A stretch of DNA of 64,000 nt from an uncultured Candidatus Rokubacteria bacterium (GCA_963771355.1 CAVYTA010000007.1:224001-288000); one strand, 5' to 3'; shown: positions 15,536 to 30,441, counted from the stretch's first letter. The notes: generated from the letters alone by a model not told the origin. Made by a program: numbers and translations.

Positions 15536-16688
15536 ATGCCCACCCCATTCGCCACGCCCCATGTGTACGAGAAGCTCGGCGTCCGCTCGGTCATTCACGG
15601 CTCCGGCACCACCACGCGCTACGGCGGCTCCCGCATGCGGCCCGAGACCATCGAGGCCATGCGCGAGGCCGCGCAGGCCCACGTGAACATCGACGAGCTG
15701 AATGCGGCCGCCGGCGCCGCCATCGCCCGCCTGCTCGCACGCACCCGCCGCGCTGGTGACGGGCGGCTCCACCGCGGGCCTGGTGCTCCAGGCCGCCGCC
15801 TGCATGACCGGCGACGATCCCGCCAAGATCGCGCGGCTGCCCGACGCCGGCGGCATGCGCAACGAGTTCGTGATCCAGCGCGCGCACCGCTTTCCGTACG
15901 ACCAGGCCTATCGCGTCCCGGGCGGCGTGCTCGTCGAGATCGGGCTGGGACGGCGCACGGCCCCGCACGAGCTGGAGGCGGCCATCGGCGAACGCACCGC
16001 CGGGGTGATCTTCCTCGTCTCCCCTTTCACGAGCCCGCCCGGCATCCTGCCGTTCGAGGAGGTCTGCCGCATTGCCCACGCGCGCGGGGTGCCGGTGCTG
16101 GTGGACGCGGCCTCCATGGTGCCGCCGCGCGAGCACCTGTTCCGCTACGTCCGCGGGGGCGCCGACCTCGTCGTCTACAGCGGTGGCAAGGGCATCCGAG
16201 GTCCGCAGAGCACGGGCATCCTCGTCGGCCGGCCGGACCTCATCCGCGCCGCCATGCTGAACGCGAGCCCGAACCAGGCCATCGGCCGCGCGGCCAAGAC
16301 GTCGAAGGAAGAGATCGTGGGGCTGGTCACCGCGCTGGAGCTCTGCCTCGCCGAGGACGAGGCGGCGGAGATGGTGCAGTTCCGGGACGCCTGCGCGCGG
16401 ATCGTGGAGGAGGTGCGGGACATCCCGGGCCTGCGTGCGGTGGTGGAGCAGGACCCGGTCAACCGCGTGATCCCCCACGCCGTGATCTACTTCGAGCCGG
16501 ACTGGGCCGGCCCCAGCGGCCCGGTGGTGCGGCGCGCCCTGGCGGAGGGCGAGCCCCACATCTACGTGCAACAGGGGACCTATCAGGGCGGCTACGGGGA
16601 CGAGCTGGCGGTAGATCCCATCAACCTGCAAGCGGGGGAGGAGAAGCTCCTCGCGGCGCGGCTGCGCGAGGAGCTCACCCGCCGCTGA
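15536..16688 (+). pseudogene. SelA-like/DgaE-family PLP-dependent enzyme with a +1 frameshift near 15737-15744
   Basis: N-terminus LGVRSVIHGSGTTTRYGGS in one frame continues as APAALVTGGS..VDAAS..YSGGKGIRGPQSTG in the +1 frame. Confidence 0.85.
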
Positions 16689-21020: not shown

Positions 21021-24000
21021 ATGACCGCGTGTCCCCGCTGCGGGCACCCGGCGCTCGCGGGGGCTCGCTTCTGCTCCGCGTGCGGGACGCCGCTGGTGGC
21101 GCCGCCCGATCCCGCGCGCTTCGGCTCGCCGGGCGCCTACACGCCCGCCCATCTCGCCGAGCGCATCCGCGGCTCGCGCGAGGCGCTGGCCGGCGAGCGC
21201 AAGCAGGTCACCGTGCTCTTCGCCGACATGCAGGGCTCGATGGAGCTGCTCGCGGACCGGGATCCCGAGGAGGCGGGCCGTATCCTCGACCAGGTCCTCG
21301 AGCAGATGATGGAAGCCGTGCACCGCTACGAGGGCACCGTGAACCAGGTGATGGGCGACGGGATCATGGCGCTGTTCGGTGCCCCGCTCGCCCACGAGGA
21401 CCATGCCGTGCGGGCCGCCTACGCGGCCCTCCGCATGCAGGAGCGCATCGGCGCCTTCGGCGACCGCATGCAGCGCGCGGCGGGGGTGCCGCTGCAGATC
21501 CGCGTGGGCATCAACTCGGGCGAGGTGATGGTGCGCGCGATCGAGAACGATCTCTCCATGTCCTATACCGCGGTGGGCCCCACCGTGCATCTCGCCGCGC
21601 GCATGGAGCAGATGGCCAAGCCCGGCTCCATCCTCGCCACCGCCGACACGGTGGCCCTGGGCGGGGGCCGCGTGGTGACGCGCTCGCTGGGCCTCATCCC
21701 GGTGCGCGGCCTTCACGCCCCGGTGGAGGTGCACGAGGTGACGGGAGCCGCCACCGCCCCCTCCCGCGCCGACGCCGCCGCCGCGCGCGGGCTCTCCCCC
21801 TTCGTGGGCCGCGACACGGAGCGCGCCGCGCTCCTGGCCGCGCTCGACGCCGCCGCGGGCGGGGGCGGCCCGGTGGTGGCGATGGTGGGCGAGGCCGGCG
21901 TGGGCAAGTCGCGTCTCGTCCGCGAGTTCACCCGGCTCGCGCGCGAGCAGGGCGCCCTGGTGCTGGAGACGGCGACCGTCTCCTACGGCCGGGCGGTCGG
22001 GCACCGCGCCGGCATCGAGCTCAACCGCCGCTTCTTCCAGATCGAGCGGGGCGACGACGAGGCCGTCGCGCGCGAGAAGATCGCCGCCGGCATGCGCGCG
22101 GTGGACCGCGGCCTCGAGGACGGCATCGCCGCCGTGCAGTGGCTGCTGGGGGTGCCGCCGGCCGCGAGTCCGTTTCTCGCCCTGGATCCCGGCGCGCGCC
22201 GGCGCCGGGCGGTGGAGGTGCTCGTTCGCCTGGTGGACGGGCTGTGCGCGCGCCAGCCGGTGGTGCTGGTGTTCGAGGATCTGCAGTGGCTGGACTCCGA
22301 GGGCGCGGAGGCGCTCGACTACATGGCCACGCACATGCCGAAGCGCGCGCTGCTGCTGGTCACTTACCGGCCCGAGCACGACGACCGGTGGCACCGGGTG
22401 CCGGGCTATGCCCGGCTGCGGCTCGAGCCTCTGGCCCCGCCGGCGGCGCAGGCGCTGCTCGCTTCGCTCCTCGGCCCCGCCGAGGACACCGGCCCCATCA
22501 GCCGTCTCGTCGCCGAGCGCGGCCGGGGCAACCCGCTCTTCCTGGAGGAATGCGTGCGGAGCCTCGCGGACACCGGCGTCCTCGCGGGCTCGCGCGGCGC
22601 CTATCGCGTGGTCCGGCCGGCGGCGACCCTGGAGGTACCCGCCAGCGTGCGCGCGGTGCTCGCCGCGCGCATCGACCGCCTGCCCGCGGAGCAGAAGCGG
22701 CTCCTGCAGGCGGCGTCGGTGGTGGGCGAGGACGTGCCGGTGCCGCTGCTCGAGGCCATCGTGGACCTGCCCGTCGAGCGCGTGCGCGCGGCGCTCGACG
22801 AGCTGCGCGGCGCCGAGCTGCTTGCCGAGGCCTCCCTCTTTCCCGACCCGGTCTACGCCTTCCGGCACGCCCTCGCTCACGACGTGGCGTACGCGAGCCT
22901 GCTCCACGAGGGCCGGCGCGCGCTCCACGCGCGCATCGTGGAGACCATCGAGCGGCTCTACGCGGGGCGGCTGGACGATCAGATCGAGCGCCTGGCCCAC
23001 CACGCCTTCACCGGAGAGCAGTGGGCGCGCGCGGTGCACTACTGCCGCGAGGCCGGCCTGCGCGCGCTCGCGCGGCTGAGCTGTCCCGAGGCGGTGGAGC
23101 GGCTCGAGCGCGCCCTGGAGGCCCTCGGCCATCTCCCCGCCTCGGAGGAGTCGCGGCGGCTCGCGGTGGACCTCCGGTTCAACCTGGGGGCGGCGCTGGT
23201 TCCGCTGGGCGCGCATGCGCGGGCTCTGGGCGTCCTCCGCGAGGCGGAGGCCCTCGCGGGGACGCTGGGCGACGAGCGGCGGCTGGCGCGCGCGCTCTCC
23301 TATCAGAGCAACATGCACTGGGAGATGGGCGACGCCGAGGCGGCCAGCGAGGCGGGCCGGCGTGCGCTCGCCATCGCGGAGCGCGCCGAGGACCTCGCGC
23401 TCCAGGTGGTGGGCAACTTCAGCCTGGCCGGCGCCACGCGCTCTCTCGGCGACTATCCGCGCGCGGCCGAGCTCCTGCGGCGGAACGTGGCCCTCCTCGA
23501 AGGCGACTTGCGCTACGAGACCTTCGGCCTCGCCGGGCTCGCGTCCGTGATGTCGCGCAGCCATCTCGCGTGGAGCCTGGCCGAGCTGGGGGAGTTCGAC
23601 GAGGCCATCGCGCGCGCGGAGGAAGGGATCCGCCTGGCGGAAGCGACGGGTCACGTGTACAGCCTGGCCTACGCCTGTCTCGGGCTGGGCGGCGCGCTCC
23701 TCCGCCGCGGCCGGCTCGGCGCCGCGCAGGGCGTGCTCGAGCGGGGTCTCGCCCTCTGCGAGGAGGTGCCGGGACTCTTCCCGCCCTTCGCCGGCGATCT
23801 CGCCCTCGTGCGCGCGCTGGGCGGCCGTGCGACGGAGGCGGTGGAGCTGGCGGCCCAGGGCGTGGCGCGAGCCGAGCGCATGGGCCGCCTCGGTCGGCTG
23901 TCCCTCATCGCCACCCACCTCGGCGAGGTGCAGCTGCTCGCCGGGCGGCTCGACGAGGCGGCCGAGCAGGGCCGGCGTGCGCTCTCCCTGGCGCGGACAC

Positions 24001-24353
24001 AGAAGGAGCGCGGCAATCAGGTGTACGCGCTGCGGCTGCTGGGCCTCGTGGCGAGCGAGACGCTGCCGGCGGACCGCGATGCCGTTGCGCGTTACGAGAG
24101 CGCCGCCCGATACTTCGACGAGGCGCTGGCCCTGGCGGAGGCGCTGGGAATGCGGCCGCTGATCGCGCGCTGCCGCCTGGGGCTGGGCCGGCTGGCGCGG
24201 CGCGCGGGCGACGCCGGGACCGCCGCGCGGCACCTCGACGCGGCGACCGCGCTGCTCCACGAGCTGGGAATGACCTACTGGCTGGAGCGCGTGGATCTCG
24301 ACCCCGCCGGCCGCGCCTCGTCCCTGGGGCCTCCCGGGGCCGCCACGAGGTGA
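21021..24353 (+). CDS. Zinc-ribbon class III adenylate/guanylate cyclase with AAA ATPase and TPR domains
   Basis: CPRCG..FCSACG, VLFAD, MGDGIMALFG, HLAARME, GEAGVGKS, FEDLQW, GNPLFLEE, TPR tail. Confidence 0.93.
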   Translation: MTACPRCGHPALAGARFCSACGTPLVAPPDPARFGSPGAYTPAHLAERIRGSREALAGERKQVTVLFADMQGSMELLADRDPEEAGRILDQVLEQMMEAVHRYEGTVNQVMGDGIMALFGAPLAHEDHAVRAAYAALRMQERIGAFGDRMQRAAGVPLQIRVGINSGEVMVRAIENDLSMSYTAVGPTVHLAARMEQMAKPGSILATADTVALGGGRVVTRSLGLIPVRGLHAPVEVHEVTGAATAPSRADAAAARGLSPFVGRDTERAALLAALDAAAGGGGPVVAMVGEAGVGKSRLVREFTRLAREQGALVLETATVSYGRAVGHRAGIELNRRFFQIERGDDEAVAREKIAAGMRAVDRGLEDGIAAVQWLLGVPPAASPFLALDPGARRRRAVEVLVRLVDGLCARQPVVLVFEDLQWLDSEGAEALDYMATHMPKRALLLVTYRPEHDDRWHRVPGYARLRLEPLAPPAAQALLASLLGPAEDTGPISRLVAERGRGNPLFLEECVRSLADTGVLAGSRGAYRVVRPAATLEVPASVRAVLAARIDRLPAEQKRLLQAASVVGEDVPVPLLEAIVDLPVERVRAALDELRGAELLAEASLFPDPVYAFRHALAHDVAYASLLHEGRRALHARIVETIERLYAGRLDDQIERLAHHAFTGEQWARAVHYCREAGLRALARLSCPEAVERLERALEALGHLPASEESRRLAVDLRFNLGAALVPLGAHARALGVLREAEALAGTLGDERRLARALSYQSNMHWEMGDAEAASEAGRRALAIAERAEDLALQVVGNFSLAGATRSLGDYPRAAELLRRNVALLEGDLRYETFGLAGLASVMSRSHLAWSLAELGEFDEAIARAEEGIRLAEATGHVYSLAYACLGLGGALLRRGRLGAAQGVLERGLALCEEVPGLFPPFAGDLALVRALGGRATEAVELAAQGVARAERMGRLGRLSLIATHLGEVQLLAGRLDEAAEQGRRALSLARTQKERGNQVYALRLLGLVASETLPADRDAVARYESAARYFDEALALAEALGMRPLIARCRLGLGRLARRAGDAGTAARHLDAATALLHELGMTYWLERVDLDPAGRASSLGPPGAATR

Positions 24354-24357
24354 TACC

Positions 24358-25227
24358 ATGCCGCCCATGAACGGCGCGCTCACGAGCATGGCGGAGGCCG
24401 CCCGGCTCGTCCGGAACGGCGACCGCGTGGTCTACGTCGGCTACATGCGGATGGAGCCGGTGGCGTTCTTCCACGAGCTCCTCCGCCAGCGCCGGCGGGA
24501 CCTCCACCTCGTGCTGGCTCCCAGCTCGGGGTGGGTGGCCGACATGATGATCGGCGCCGGCGCCCTGGCCGACATCGAGTTCTCGAGCCTGTCCTTCATG
24601 GAATATGGCTTCGCGCCGAACTTCCGGCGCCGAGCGGAGGCGGGGAGCCTCCGCTACCTCGAGCACTCCTGACCCGCCCTCATGAGCGCACTCCAGGCTG
24701 GAGTGATGAACGTCCCCTTCGTGCCGGTGCGCGGGCTCCTGGGCACGGACTACATGAAGGTGCGGCCGGACTTCCGTGCGGTCCCCAATCCCTACGATCC
24801 CCGTGAGGAGATCGCGCTGGTGCCCGCCATCGCGCCCGACGTCGCCGTCTTCCACGGCATCCGCGGCGACCGCCACGGCAATGTCATCACCAGCGGGGTG
24901 CTGGACGCCAAGCTCATCGCGCAGGCCTCGCGGCGCGCGGTGGCCACGGTGGAGGAAGTCTCGGACGGCGACCTCACGCTCGAGCCGCACACCGGGGTGC
25001 TCGTCCCCGGCATCCACGTCTCCGCGGTCGTGCACGCGCCGCGCGGCGCCCATCCCACCGCCTTCGAGGGCAAGTATCCGGTGGACGGCGAGCACGTGCG
25101 CGAGTACGTGAGCGCCGCCGGGAGCGAGGCCACCTTCGCCGAGTGGCTGGACCGCTACGTGTACGGGGTGCTCGACCACGCCGCGTACCTCGAGCGCGTC
25201 GGGCTCGCAGCCGCGGCGGCCCGCTGA
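24358..25227 (+). CDS. Class I CoA-transferase-like alpha subunit with in-frame UGA, probably selenocysteine (U105)
   Basis: ORFs 24358-24672 and 24682-25227 share a frame and join as LEHS-U-PALMSALQAG..VPFVPVRGLLGTD..PAIAPDVAVFHG..GNV..HPT; SD GAGGTG. Confidence 0.88.
24680..24709 (+). promoter_or_regulatory. Putative bacterial SECIS element
   Basis: UCAU-[GAGCG]-CACUCCA-GGC-UGGAGUG-AUGA; 7-bp upper stem starts 17 nt after the UGA; G-led apical loop. Confidence 0.75.
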
Positions 25228-25241
25228 AGCCGACGGGCCGG

Positions 25242-25976
25242 ATGGCCCCCACCGCCGATGAGCCCACCCGCGCCGAGGTGATGGCGGTCGCCATCGCGCG
25301 GCGCCTGCGCGACGGCGAGACCATCGCGGTGGGCTCGGTGTCGCCCATCCCCGCCAGCGCCTGCCTTCTCGCCAAGCGGCTCCACGCCCCGGCGGCGCGC
25401 CTCATCCTCCTCGGCAGCCGCGCCCACTTCCCCTTCAATGGCGGGGTGCAGGAGTTCTACAACTACGCGGTGCGGGGACGGCTGGACGTCTTCTTCGCCA
25501 GCGGGGCGCAGATCGACGGCCACGGCAACTTCAACCTCAGCGTGATCGGGGACTACGACCGGCCCACCGTCCGGCTGCCGGGCGGGCGCGCCAACGGCAT
25601 CCTCTCCTTCGTGGCCAAGCGCCTCATCCTCTTCCGCACCGAGCACAGCCGCCGCGTCTTCGTGCCCCGGGTGGACTTCATCACCTCGCCCGGCACCACC
25701 CCGGAGGGCGTGTACCGGATCGGCGGGCTCCACGCGGTGGTGACCGACCTCTGCGTGTTCGAGTTCGATCGCGCGAAGGGCCGCCTCGAGCTGGGCACGG
25801 TGCATCCGGGGGTGACCCTGGCGGAGGTCGAGAGCCGGACCGGGTTTCCCCTGCACGCGCCCTCGCCCGTGCCCGCCTCGCCGACCCCGAGCGCGGAGGA
25901 GCTGGCGCTCCTGCGCGGGCCGGTGCGCGAGGAGCTCGGCACCTTCTACCCGGAGTTCGTCAAGCAGCAGTCTTGA
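25242..25976 (+). CDS. Class I CoA-transferase-like beta subunit lacking the canonical Glu
   Basis: DVFFASGAQIDGHGNFN, RLPGG, FVPRVDFITSPG, VVTDL, VHPGVT. Confidence 0.9.
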   Translation: MAPTADEPTRAEVMAVAIARRLRDGETIAVGSVSPIPASACLLAKRLHAPAARLILLGSRAHFPFNGGVQEFYNYAVRGRLDVFFASGAQIDGHGNFNLSVIGDYDRPTVRLPGGRANGILSFVAKRLILFRTEHSRRVFVPRVDFITSPGTTPEGVYRIGGLHAVVTDLCVFEFDRAKGRLELGTVHPGVTLAEVESRTGFPLHAPSPVPASPTPSAEELALLRGPVREELGTFYPEFVKQQS

Positions 25977-26054: not shown

Positions 26055-28535
<2,481 letters not shown>

Positions 28536-29208: not shown

Positions 29209-29863
29209 GTGGCTGCGGCGCAAACTCCAGATCAGGACCGGCAGCGTGATCCCGAGACGACCCTGGGTGATTTGCTCTACGCCAACAAGGCGAAGACGCC
29301 CATTCCCGAGAGCGACTGGGTCGGACTCGTCCAGTCCATCGCTCGAGGCGACCAGTTGGCGCTGCATGCACTCTACACGCAGGCACATCGAATCGTGTTC
29401 ACCTTGATCATGCGGATCACCAGCAATCGGGCAACCTCTGAAGAGCTGACGCTGGATGTGTTCTACGATGTGTGGCGACGAGCCTCGTCGTACGATCCGG
29501 AGGGCGGCCCCGTCATCGGATGGATCATGAACCAAGCGCGGTCCAGAGCGATTGACCGGTTGCGGTTCGACCAGCGGAAGAAACGCGTCAACGATCATGC
29601 GGACGGTCCACTTCCGGTGACGGCTTCGCGTGGCCCCGACGAGGCCTTCGACGCTCAGAGAGCAGGGCCAGCTCTTGCGAGAGGCCTTGAAGGTACTCTC
29701 TCCGCAAGAGCGACAGGCTATCGAAACCGCATTTTTCTCCGAGATGACGTATGCCGAAGCAGCAGCACAATTGAATCAACCCCTCGGAACCGTGAAGACA
29801 CGAATCCGCTCCGGATTGGCAGCACTCCGACAGGCGCTCACCGACGCATTGAGGGCCCGATGA
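29209..29863 (+). pseudogene. ECF sigma factor with a +1 frameshift near 29655
   Basis: Sigma2 (GDQLALHALY..WIMNQARSRAIDRLR) and sigma4 (LSPQERQAI..PLGTVKTRIRSGL) lie in different frames. Confidence 0.87.
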
Positions 29864-30441
29864 GTTCAGAATCGAGCCACCACGATCGGGACCGCCTGGA
29901 ATCGGTGTTCCTTTACGCCTTGCAGGTCCTTCCCTCGAGCGAGCGTCTCCTCGTGGAGGCGCATATCTCCGCGTGTGCGGATTGCCGGCACGAACTGGAG
30001 ACGCTTCGCCCAGTCATCGGCGCCTTCACCTCCTGGCCAACCGATGTGCTGCGACCATCGGCATCGCTATGGGAACGCCTTGCCCAGCGAATCGCGGCGG
30101 AGACGGGCGAGGCGCCGGGGATATCAGCGCCTCGCCGACTGGCTGAACCGGAATGGGAAGAGGCGGCGCCTGGCATCTCCTGCAAACTCCTCGCCACGGA
30201 TACAGAGAAACACCGCGTCAGCATGCTCGTGCGGCTCGCGCCGGGAGCCGAGTATCCGCCTCATCGTCATGCCGGAATCGAAGAGTTGTATCTGTTGCAT
30301 GGTGAGCTGACGATCGACGACAAGAAGCTCTATCCTGGGGACTACAACCGGGCGGAGCCTGGCACCGCCGATCAGCGTATCTGGAGCGAGACCGGCTGTA
30401 CGTGCGTTCTCCTCACCTCGACCCGAGACGTTCTTCGCTGA
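29860..30441 (+). CDS. ChrR-like anti-sigma factor (ZAS + cupin_7)
   Basis: HISACADC (HxxxCxxC), YPPHRHAGIEE cupin; ATGA overlap with the sigma stop. Confidence 0.88.
   Translation: MSSESSHHDRDRLESVFLYALQVLPSSERLLVEAHISACADCRHELETLRPVIGAFTSWPTDVLRPSASLWERLAQRIAAETGEAPGISAPRRLAEPEWEEAAPGISCKLLATDTEKHRVSMLVRLAPGAEYPPHRHAGIEELYLLHGELTIDDKKLYPGDYNRAEPGTADQRIWSETGCTCVLLTSTRDVLR

Follow-up and report, generated by a model that had tools for sequence, protein, structure and literature searches.

Two adjoining genes at 24358-25976 of a 64,000-nucleotide stretch of DNA (the window) from an uncultured Candidatus Rokubacteria bacterium (GCA_963771355.1 CAVYTA010000007.1:224001-288000) are predicted to encode the alpha and beta subunits of an enzyme with the fold of glutaconate coenzyme A (CoA)-transferase (Gct). 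They apparently represent a selenoprotein family that is real and so far undescribed, as well as a catalytically new form of this fold. The in-frame TGA of the alpha gene is very likely read as selenocysteine (Sec, U), and relatives show a strict exchange of the beta-subunit catalytic Glu for a Sec or Cys at this alpha position. The features of the pair are as follows; SECIS denotes a selenocysteine insertion sequence.

24347..24353, + strand: Shine-Dalgarno-like GAGGTGA, 4 bases 5' of the alpha ATG (from the sequence; function presumed)
24358..25227, + strand: alpha subunit, Gct-type CoA-transferase fold (PF01144), 289 aa including Sec105 (sequence, profile search, model)
24601..24603, + strand: alpha Glu82, in the motif E-[YF]-G-x-A-P; candidate for the acid/base partner of Sec (conservation; role putative)
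24670..24672, + strand: in-frame TGA, predicted Sec105 (alignment, conservation among relatives)
24689..24705, + strand: SECIS-like hairpin CACTCCA-GGC-TGGAGTG, loop G (synonymous constraint, paired changes)
25242..25976, + strand: beta subunit, PF01144, 244 aa (sequence, profile alignments)
25341..25346, + strand: beta Ser34-Pro35 (GSVSP) (conservation; alignment with AibB GVASP)
25410..25412, + strand: beta Leu57, at the site of GctB Glu54 and AibB Cys56 (alignments)

Both subunits match PF01144 in profile searches, and the only NCBIfam subfamily matches of the pair (TIGR02429 and TIGR02428) are weak and far under the cut-off. The AlphaFold2 model of alpha has a predicted local distance difference test score (pLDDT) of 93, and Foldseek aligns it to GctA (1POI_A) and IpdA (6CON_A) with a template-modelling score (TM) of 0.89; the beta model, built from a single sequence, reached a pLDDT of 46.7 and was not used. 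With the TGA read as U, alpha runs LEHS-U-PALMSA-LQA around residue 105, and it contains no second Cys.

The selenocysteine codon

The three components of the Sec machinery that were searched for, tRNA-Sec, selA and selB, are all found together on the window's contig, the true selA lying about 110 kb before the window and adjoining the other two. The window itself contains, at 15702-16688, a gene for a SelA-like pyridoxal-phosphate protein with a weak PF03841 match, which is not the true selA. In a set of 41 related genomes, 39 of which gave some match, codon 105 is TGA in all 15 of the best order-level matches, and Asn, His or Met in the 8 weaker loci examined. A scan of GTDB, partly repeating the genomes of this set, gave 78 loci, with TGA at codon 105 in 53, Cys in 21 and Glu in 4. 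The TGA loci belong to Methylomirabilota/Rokubacteria, Syntrophales, Desulfobaccales, Binatia and Deferrimicrobia, and the Cys loci to Paenibacillus, Aquificota and Dadabacteria. Within the window's phylum (151 genomes) each of the 26 top places contains a TGA, and two further phylum samples (401 and 301 genomes) yielded 20 loci, of which 17 have TGA, 1 Cys and 2 Glu; 3 of these 17 belong to the phylum of Paenibacillus. A selA gene above the cut-off is present in 5/5 TGA-bearing and 3/5 Cys-bearing genomes tested.

The SECIS-like hairpin starts 16 nt after the TGA. Its folding energy is not unusual relative to shuffled sequences (z -1.0 to +0.2), so the case for it rests on codon constraint. 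Among the 53 TGA loci, the Leu at +7 is written CTC in 52 (background 42%), the Gly at +10 is GGR in all 53 (background 36%) and an Ala is GCT in 37 (background 5%). The outer pairs of the stem alternate between G-C, C-G and A-T in these loci, both sides changing, and at least 6 of the 7 pairs are kept in 49/53 TGA loci versus 1/21 Cys loci, although such counts overstate independence because the TGA loci are kin. A conserved UGA, a SECIS-like hairpin and the selA, selB and tRNA-Sec genes, which are the sequence tests for a bacterial selenoprotein, are thus all found for this pair, and alpha is predicted to be one.

It is very improbable that the TGA is an assembly error, or a real stop that makes alpha a pseudogene or divides it into two short proteins. 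Most of the best database matches are indeed short, 112 of the best 120 being pieces of 162-194 aa (about 60% of the protein) left where gene callers split alpha. But the TGA stands at the same codon in several phyla and is replaced by Cys in other lineages, the hairpin is constrained, selA accompanies the TGA in every such genome tested, and the GC content at third codon positions is 0.96 on one side of the TGA and 0.93 on the other. A contig from a public run covers 24268-24713, TGA codon included, with 0 differences; short contig pieces of both genes also occur in RNA runs, and these cannot show expression. A genetic code in which TGA means Trp was ruled out, as TGA serves as the stop codon of alpha and of the gene upstream, and the residue that homologues carry at codon 105 is Cys rather than Trp.

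Exchange of active-site residues between the subunits

The earlier note, made from the sequence of the window, had placed Sec in the column of the catalytic Glu of IpdA, and the phmmer and profile alignments bear this out: with no gaps nearby, and seven residues before LQA, U105 aligns with Glu105 of IpdA (EMDEGMLRCGLQA, 6CON), with a Gln in GctA and with a Gly in AibA. The IpdA motif at that column is EMD-E-GMLRCG-LQA, and we take its Glu105 to be the catalytic base. The IpdA chain of 6COJ, whose PDB title is 'IpdAB E105A COCHEA-CoA complex', has Ala exactly at this column, so the depositors had singled out residue 105. By analogy with IpdA, residue 105 would face the acyl part of a bound acyl-CoA.

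On the beta side the sequence reads RLILLGS, with Leu57 in place of GctB Glu54 and AibB Cys56, which agrees with the same note's statement that the class I Glu is missing. Class I enzymes cannot do without Glu54, which IpdB lacks (PMC5380842, excerpt). A first comparison took 126 distinct alphas: the beta Glu is absent in all 81 cases in which column 105 holds U, C or E and the beta is readable, and present in 33 with N, H or M, the remaining 12 being without a usable beta. The multiple alignment of the Glu and Cys columns that had been proposed as a check was extended to 181 pairs with a full-length beta, and here the beta Glu is present in 0/141 U/C pairs, 0/9 E pairs and 31/31 N/H pairs. 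The exchange is strict, and the loss of the beta Glu in 141/141 Sec/Cys pairs supports the suggestion of something other than an ordinary class I CoA-transferase. Two other residues follow the same division: alpha Glu82 and beta Ser34 are each present in 91% of the 141 Sec/Cys pairs versus 0/31 Asn/His pairs. Most of these pairs (45/55 U and 72/86 C) also have a short beta, in which about 20 residues are missing between Leu57 and the Glu71 helix relative to the Glu54-bearing betas, a deletion that removes the segment of AibB Glu72.

Another beta Glu at the canonical position, for which Glu71 (in VQEFY) was the named candidate, would have spoken for a conventional enzyme. Glu71 is conserved in 92%, and the alignment rules it out as a relocated catalytic residue: it maps to a different residue of GctB and AibB, and it is not a moved Glu54, because the column is mostly acidic in the 31 Glu54-bearing pairs too (Asp 45%, Glu 26%).

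Beyond these pairs, the best 150 representatives of clusters at 50% identity gave 151 aligned stretches, with Glu at column 105 in 47, Cys in 39, Asn in 14, Gly in 11, His in 9, a gap in 13 and other residues in 18. At least 7865 proteins match one soil member at E <= 1e-40; residue 105 was not read in them, and where named they are mostly called CoA-transferases. The host genome itself contains paralogues with Asn (C6:1646501), His (C5:725706) and Met (C6:1269763) at column 105, of which the Asn and His forms keep the beta Glu and the Met form is a fused protein.

Quick IQ-TREE trees were made of 126 alpha rows and of the 37 beta rows left when the 181 had been thinned at 62% identity. The three catalytic types need only two changes on the alpha and beta trees, and in the beta tree the Sec/Cys pairs fall on one side of a branch with a Shimodaira-Hasegawa-like approximate likelihood ratio (SH-aLRT) support of 91. 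The window's beta belongs to the short-beta group (support 99), which also holds two distinct Cys lineages; its sister is the proteobacterial one of these (84, not starred). The sampled Glu-type pairs branch apart from the Sec/Cys pairs, IpdAB itself being outside the tree. The distribution of U and C at column 105 requires at least 4-5 changes.

Several further arrangements were seen among the loci. More Sec lineages have U at the same column and long betas, with the motifs REFSUVGVM (L104-L111, L172), TENSUPVIY (L167) and EGSUTAII (L258), and L112 is a Cys sister of the first of them. Four genomes of Desulfobaccales/Syntrophales carry a Sec alpha without an adjacent beta (L061, L073, L075, L082) and a matching beta elsewhere (L144-L147), which in the two loci read has an MBL-fold-like gene on one side and a gene resembling a P-loop kinase on the other. 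Tandem pairs occur at L155 and L156, where a Glu105 pair adjoins a His/beta-Glu pair together with a tripartite ATP-independent periplasmic (TRAP) transporter, and at L059 and L081 an Asn/beta-Glu pair lies near a Sec pair, with an amidohydrolase and a DUF169-CoaE fusion.

Gene neighbours and the reaction

As the tentative first choice among the reactions considered, and with rather less than even confidence, we propose a reductive C-S cleavage of 2-(alkylthio)acyl-CoA, for example (methylthio)acetyl-CoA, with the predicted Sec105 as nucleophile. The CoA ester would be made by a separate enzyme, a class III CoA-transferase or a ligase, as the neighbours of relatives suggest. On chemical grounds, the Cys or Sec facing the acyl group could then attack the sulfur of R-S-CH2-CO-SCoA; the thioester enolate would leave and be protonated to acetyl-CoA, with alpha Glu82 as candidate donor, and an enzyme Se-S-R adduct would remain. 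For want of a second Cys in alpha, the reductant would have to come from outside, and a thiol or a disulfide reductase might free R-SH, for example methanethiol for methionine synthesis. Such a mechanism would explain the choice of Sec, the missing resolving Cys in alpha and the reductase neighbours. There is a chemical precedent in Nu-class glutathione S-transferase (GST), for which a thiolate has been proposed to attack an alpha-thio carbonyl compound by way of an enolate (PMC5892560, excerpt).

The contexts of the relatives, those with Cys being the more informative, point jointly, as we read them, to thioether acids that a separate enzyme turns into CoA esters. Counting only loci with 1.9 kb of downstream sequence, a class III CoA-transferase gene lies within that distance downstream of 20/70 Cys, 1/9 Glu, 0/39 Sec and 0/28 Asn/His/Gln/Met loci, and it is frequent in both short-beta Cys lineages; with this gene beside the Cys pairs, activation to the CoA ester would be covered by another enzyme. 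On plasmids, all 7 loci examined of 14 matches have alpha, beta and then a CoA transferase gene, class III by profile, and five of them continue with a 2-hydroxyacid dehydrogenase, a class II aldolase, an FGGY kinase, a thiamine-diphosphate enzyme and a molybdenum oxidoreductase. The metagenome loci, taken from the best 80 of 585 matches, include L218, where alpha and beta are accompanied by a class III CoA-transferase, a molybdenum S/N-oxide reductase and an AhpD-like CxxC protein, and also by a methylthio-inosine/adenosine phosphorylase and MtnA (both above the NCBIfam cut-offs) and a class II aldolase. A methylthio-nucleoside phosphorylase, MtnA and a class II aldolase make up the dihydroxyacetone phosphate (DHAP) shunt, a route yielding 2-methylthioacetaldehyde (PMC10986504, excerpt). 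In the aerobic branch of this shunt in Rhodopseudomonas palustris, methanethiol is released by 'unknown enzyme(s)' and recycled via O-acetylhomoserine sulfhydrylase; the metY enzyme, whose gene lies near six Cys loci of the longer-beta lineage, uses methanethiol (PMC5893883, excerpt). The Paenibacillus loci combine flavin monooxygenases, a peptide ATP-binding cassette (ABC) importer, the pair, a cupin resembling thiol dioxygenases, the class III enzyme and DinB; the cupin, present in seven of them, resembles the protein annotated as cysteine dioxygenase at L150, and DinB is present in six. Genes near the Diaphorobacter pair encode a GST-like protein, glutathione reductase, cysteine dioxygenase and 3-sulfinopropanoyl-CoA desulfinase, and a rhodanese gene occurs near some Cys loci. 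In Aquificota (L085-L089, L100), the Cys pair lies between the large subunit of an acyl-CoA mutase, with an RQFAGF motif that we take to be of the isobutyryl-CoA-mutase type, and the B12-binding subunit.

Most Sec pairs are lone two-gene units. Reductases are found at a few of the 84 Sec loci: a Sec-bearing gene resembling CoA-disulfide reductase at 4, an AhpD-like CxxC gene at 4 (the two kinds together at 6 loci of one lineage) and HdrABC-like genes, upstream on the same strand, at 1. At L268, L269, L271 and L273 the CoA-disulfide-reductase-like gene is convergent with the pair and has its in-frame TGA in SYSA-U-A[VI]P. The host genome has metY-like, MtnA-like and 29 class III-like matches.

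In the window, the pair is flanked by genes whose order is similar in the closest relatives, and a promoter and terminator scan found no element for it.

21216-24353: cyclase-AAA-TPR gene, upstream of alpha (similar gene order in the closest relatives)
26055-28535: H+-pyrophosphatase gene, downstream of beta (similar gene order in the closest relatives)

The TGA within the GAGGTGA is the stop codon of the cyclase-AAA-TPR gene, 4 bases before alpha. Further downstream, 29209-30441 is a single open reading frame that combines sigma-70 region 2 with a ChrR-like cupin, the C-terminal part of the sigma factor seemingly being in another frame (29630-29863), probably through a frameshift or an assembly error.

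A number of observations weigh against the C-S cleavage. The two flanking genes of the window are uninformative on substrate, and the host genome gave no match to the aldolase, thiol dioxygenase and GST profiles built from the Cys loci, so that the DHAP shunt is not evident in the host. At the Sec loci, the class III neighbour is absent (0/39), the reductase neighbours come mostly from a single lineage and, pointing towards or away from the pair, are not co-transcribed with it, and at L262 and L270 the pair follows an acyl-CoA ligase, in one case with an acyl-CoA dehydrogenase too, which fits plain acyl-CoA chemistry. Among the Cys relatives, the operon that holds the Aquificota pairs is of the B12 isobutyryl-CoA-mutase type and contains no sulfur genes, sulfur markers are missing from most loci of the proteobacterial lineage, the complete DHAP gene set is found at one locus only (L218), and of the 20 class III cases 13 come from kin (7 plasmid and 6 Paenibacillus loci). 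The neighbour comparison is further weakened by its Asn/His control, in which only 3/43 loci have long flanks.

The neighbourhoods of the relatives lean to redox C-S cleavage, with an acyl-enzyme as a close rival. Sec105 would in that case attack the thioester carbonyl, giving an acyl-selenoester resolved by water, as in an acyl-CoA hydrolase, by another thiol, or by a carboxylate via a mixed anhydride, which would amount to CoA transfer with no glutamyl-CoA, and in each case with no net redox; this was the kind of chemistry envisaged in the earlier note, and we regard it as possible but doubtful. The strict exchange of a beta Glu for an alpha Sec or Cys looks like that of one nucleophile for another, the Aquificota Cys pair lies in an operon with a mutase, an acyl-CoA dehydrogenase and an enoyl-CoA hydratase and with no ligase in the five loci read, and the lone two-gene units of most Sec pairs are what a housekeeping acyl-CoA enzyme might show. 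An internal anhydride has also been proposed for ThnP, a CoA-transferase without the Glu (PMC11659651, excerpt). However, a second CoA-transferase behind the pair would be redundant in two Cys lineages, hydrolysis of an ester just made would be futile, and the organosulfur and reductase neighbours would be left unexplained. C-S cleavage would, unlike the acyl-selenoester route, be a redox use of Sec.

Two other reactions appear less probable. Residue 105 could serve as a general acid/base in an acyl-CoA lyase, hydrolase or decarboxylase, for example one that releases a thiol by beta-elimination from a 3-thioether-acyl-CoA. The models for this are IpdA, where we take Glu105 to act so in a retro-Claisen hydrolysis, and AibB, with Cys56 in a decarboxylation; residue 105 is in the column of IpdA Glu105, Glu is the commonest residue at this column (47/151 stretches), beta shares its GxxSP with AibB, and a retro-Michael release of thiol would suit the Paenibacillus and Diaphorobacter neighbours as well. 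Against this, most of a selenol is ionised when the pH is neutral, which would make it a poor proton donor, and several phyla have kept the costly Sec instead of Cys. The segment with AibB Glu72, which feeds protons (PMC7756340, excerpt), is deleted in the short beta. No isovalerate genes were recognised among the annotated recurring neighbours, and no steroid C/D-ring cluster was found there or in the window flanks, the rare neighbours being only partly annotated. On balance we think an acid/base role unlikely. Rather more remote is the handling of CoA disulfides or persulfides, in which Sec would attack CoA-S-S-R to give an enzyme Se-S-CoA and pass on CoA or sulfur: the CoA-disulfide-reductase-like and HdrABC-like genes at some Sec loci and the rhodanese near some Cys loci point to it, but these loci are few and kin, and the class III CoA-transferase and the methylthio-nucleoside genes would not be explained. 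The family may also hold more than one activity.

Novelty and comparison with known systems

No PF01144 or CoA-transferase entry is found among the 119 prokaryotic selenoprotein families of a 2026 review (PMC13188914, Table 1), the pair matches no selenoprotein model of NCBIfam 20.0, and the main texts of PMC13326102 and PMC12013277 (supplements outside scope) do not mention 'CoA'. A Sec CoA-transferase was not found described in the literature searched, the content of BSepDB and most subscription papers being outside its scope. We would thus have a selenoprotein family of several phyla in a fold unlisted among the 119 known families, hidden because gene callers split alpha. It would also give the Gct fold a third way of arranging its catalytic residues, an alpha Cys or Sec besides the beta Glu and the alpha Glu, with a large Cys branch (39/151 stretches). 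If the C-S cleavage were true, the chemistry would be new for both the fold and selenium, and the enzyme would be a candidate for the 'unknown enzyme(s)' releasing methanethiol in the aerobic DHAP shunt (PMC5893883, excerpt). One might speculate, at some risk, that the pair is the selenium form of a large enzyme family, misannotated as 'glutaconate CoA-transferase', which cleaves (alkylthio)acetyl-CoA reductively to acetyl-CoA and a free thiol by way of an enzyme Se-S-R or S-S-R adduct. The Cys form would then supply the step that is missing from the aerobic DHAP-methanethiol shunt, the release of methanethiol, and would be a widespread source of this thiol in soil and sea. A look-up for the Cys pair in R. 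palustris returned Xanthobacteraceae records, none naming that species; Paracoccus denitrificans PD1222 carries a Cys pair with a class III CoA-transferase gene (PDEN_RS22910/22905/22900), and the C-S cleavage can be tested there.

The pair fails the defining residue of GctAB, IpdAB and AibAB alike, within the same Gct fold, as judged from its sequence. GctAB (1POI; glutaconate CoA-transferase, class I) is the best structural match of alpha (TM 0.89, 27% identity) and the best profile match for both subunits, but the pair has Leu for the beta Glu54, Sec for the alpha Gln and about 20 beta residues fewer after the Glu54 site. With IpdAB (6CON, 6CO6, 6CO9, 6COJ), the ring-cleaving hydrolase of COCHEA-CoA, it shares the two-subunit Gct-type fold (TM 0.88-0.89, 25-26% identity), a beta without the catalytic Glu (for IpdB, PMC5380842, excerpt) and a key residue at alpha column 105; it differs in having Sec or Cys for Glu105, a shorter beta and no recognised steroid-degradation neighbours. 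AibAB (5MZW series), a 3-methylglutaconyl-CoA decarboxylase, is likewise a Gct-type pair without the Glu and without CoA transfer, with GVASP in beta and enolate chemistry, but its Cys56 is on beta, where the present pair has Leu57, the segment with its Glu72 is missing from the present beta, and Gly takes the place of Sec in its alpha. For the mechanism only, the proposed cleavage resembles that of the Omega- and Nu-class glutathione lyases (LigG, NaGSTNu, GSTO1), in which a thiolate attacks the sulfur of an alpha-thio carbonyl compound, an enolate leaves and a disulfide is the product (PMC5892560, PMC3621891, excerpts); these have an unrelated fold and act on glutathione conjugates, not CoA esters, and we claim no relation in sequence.
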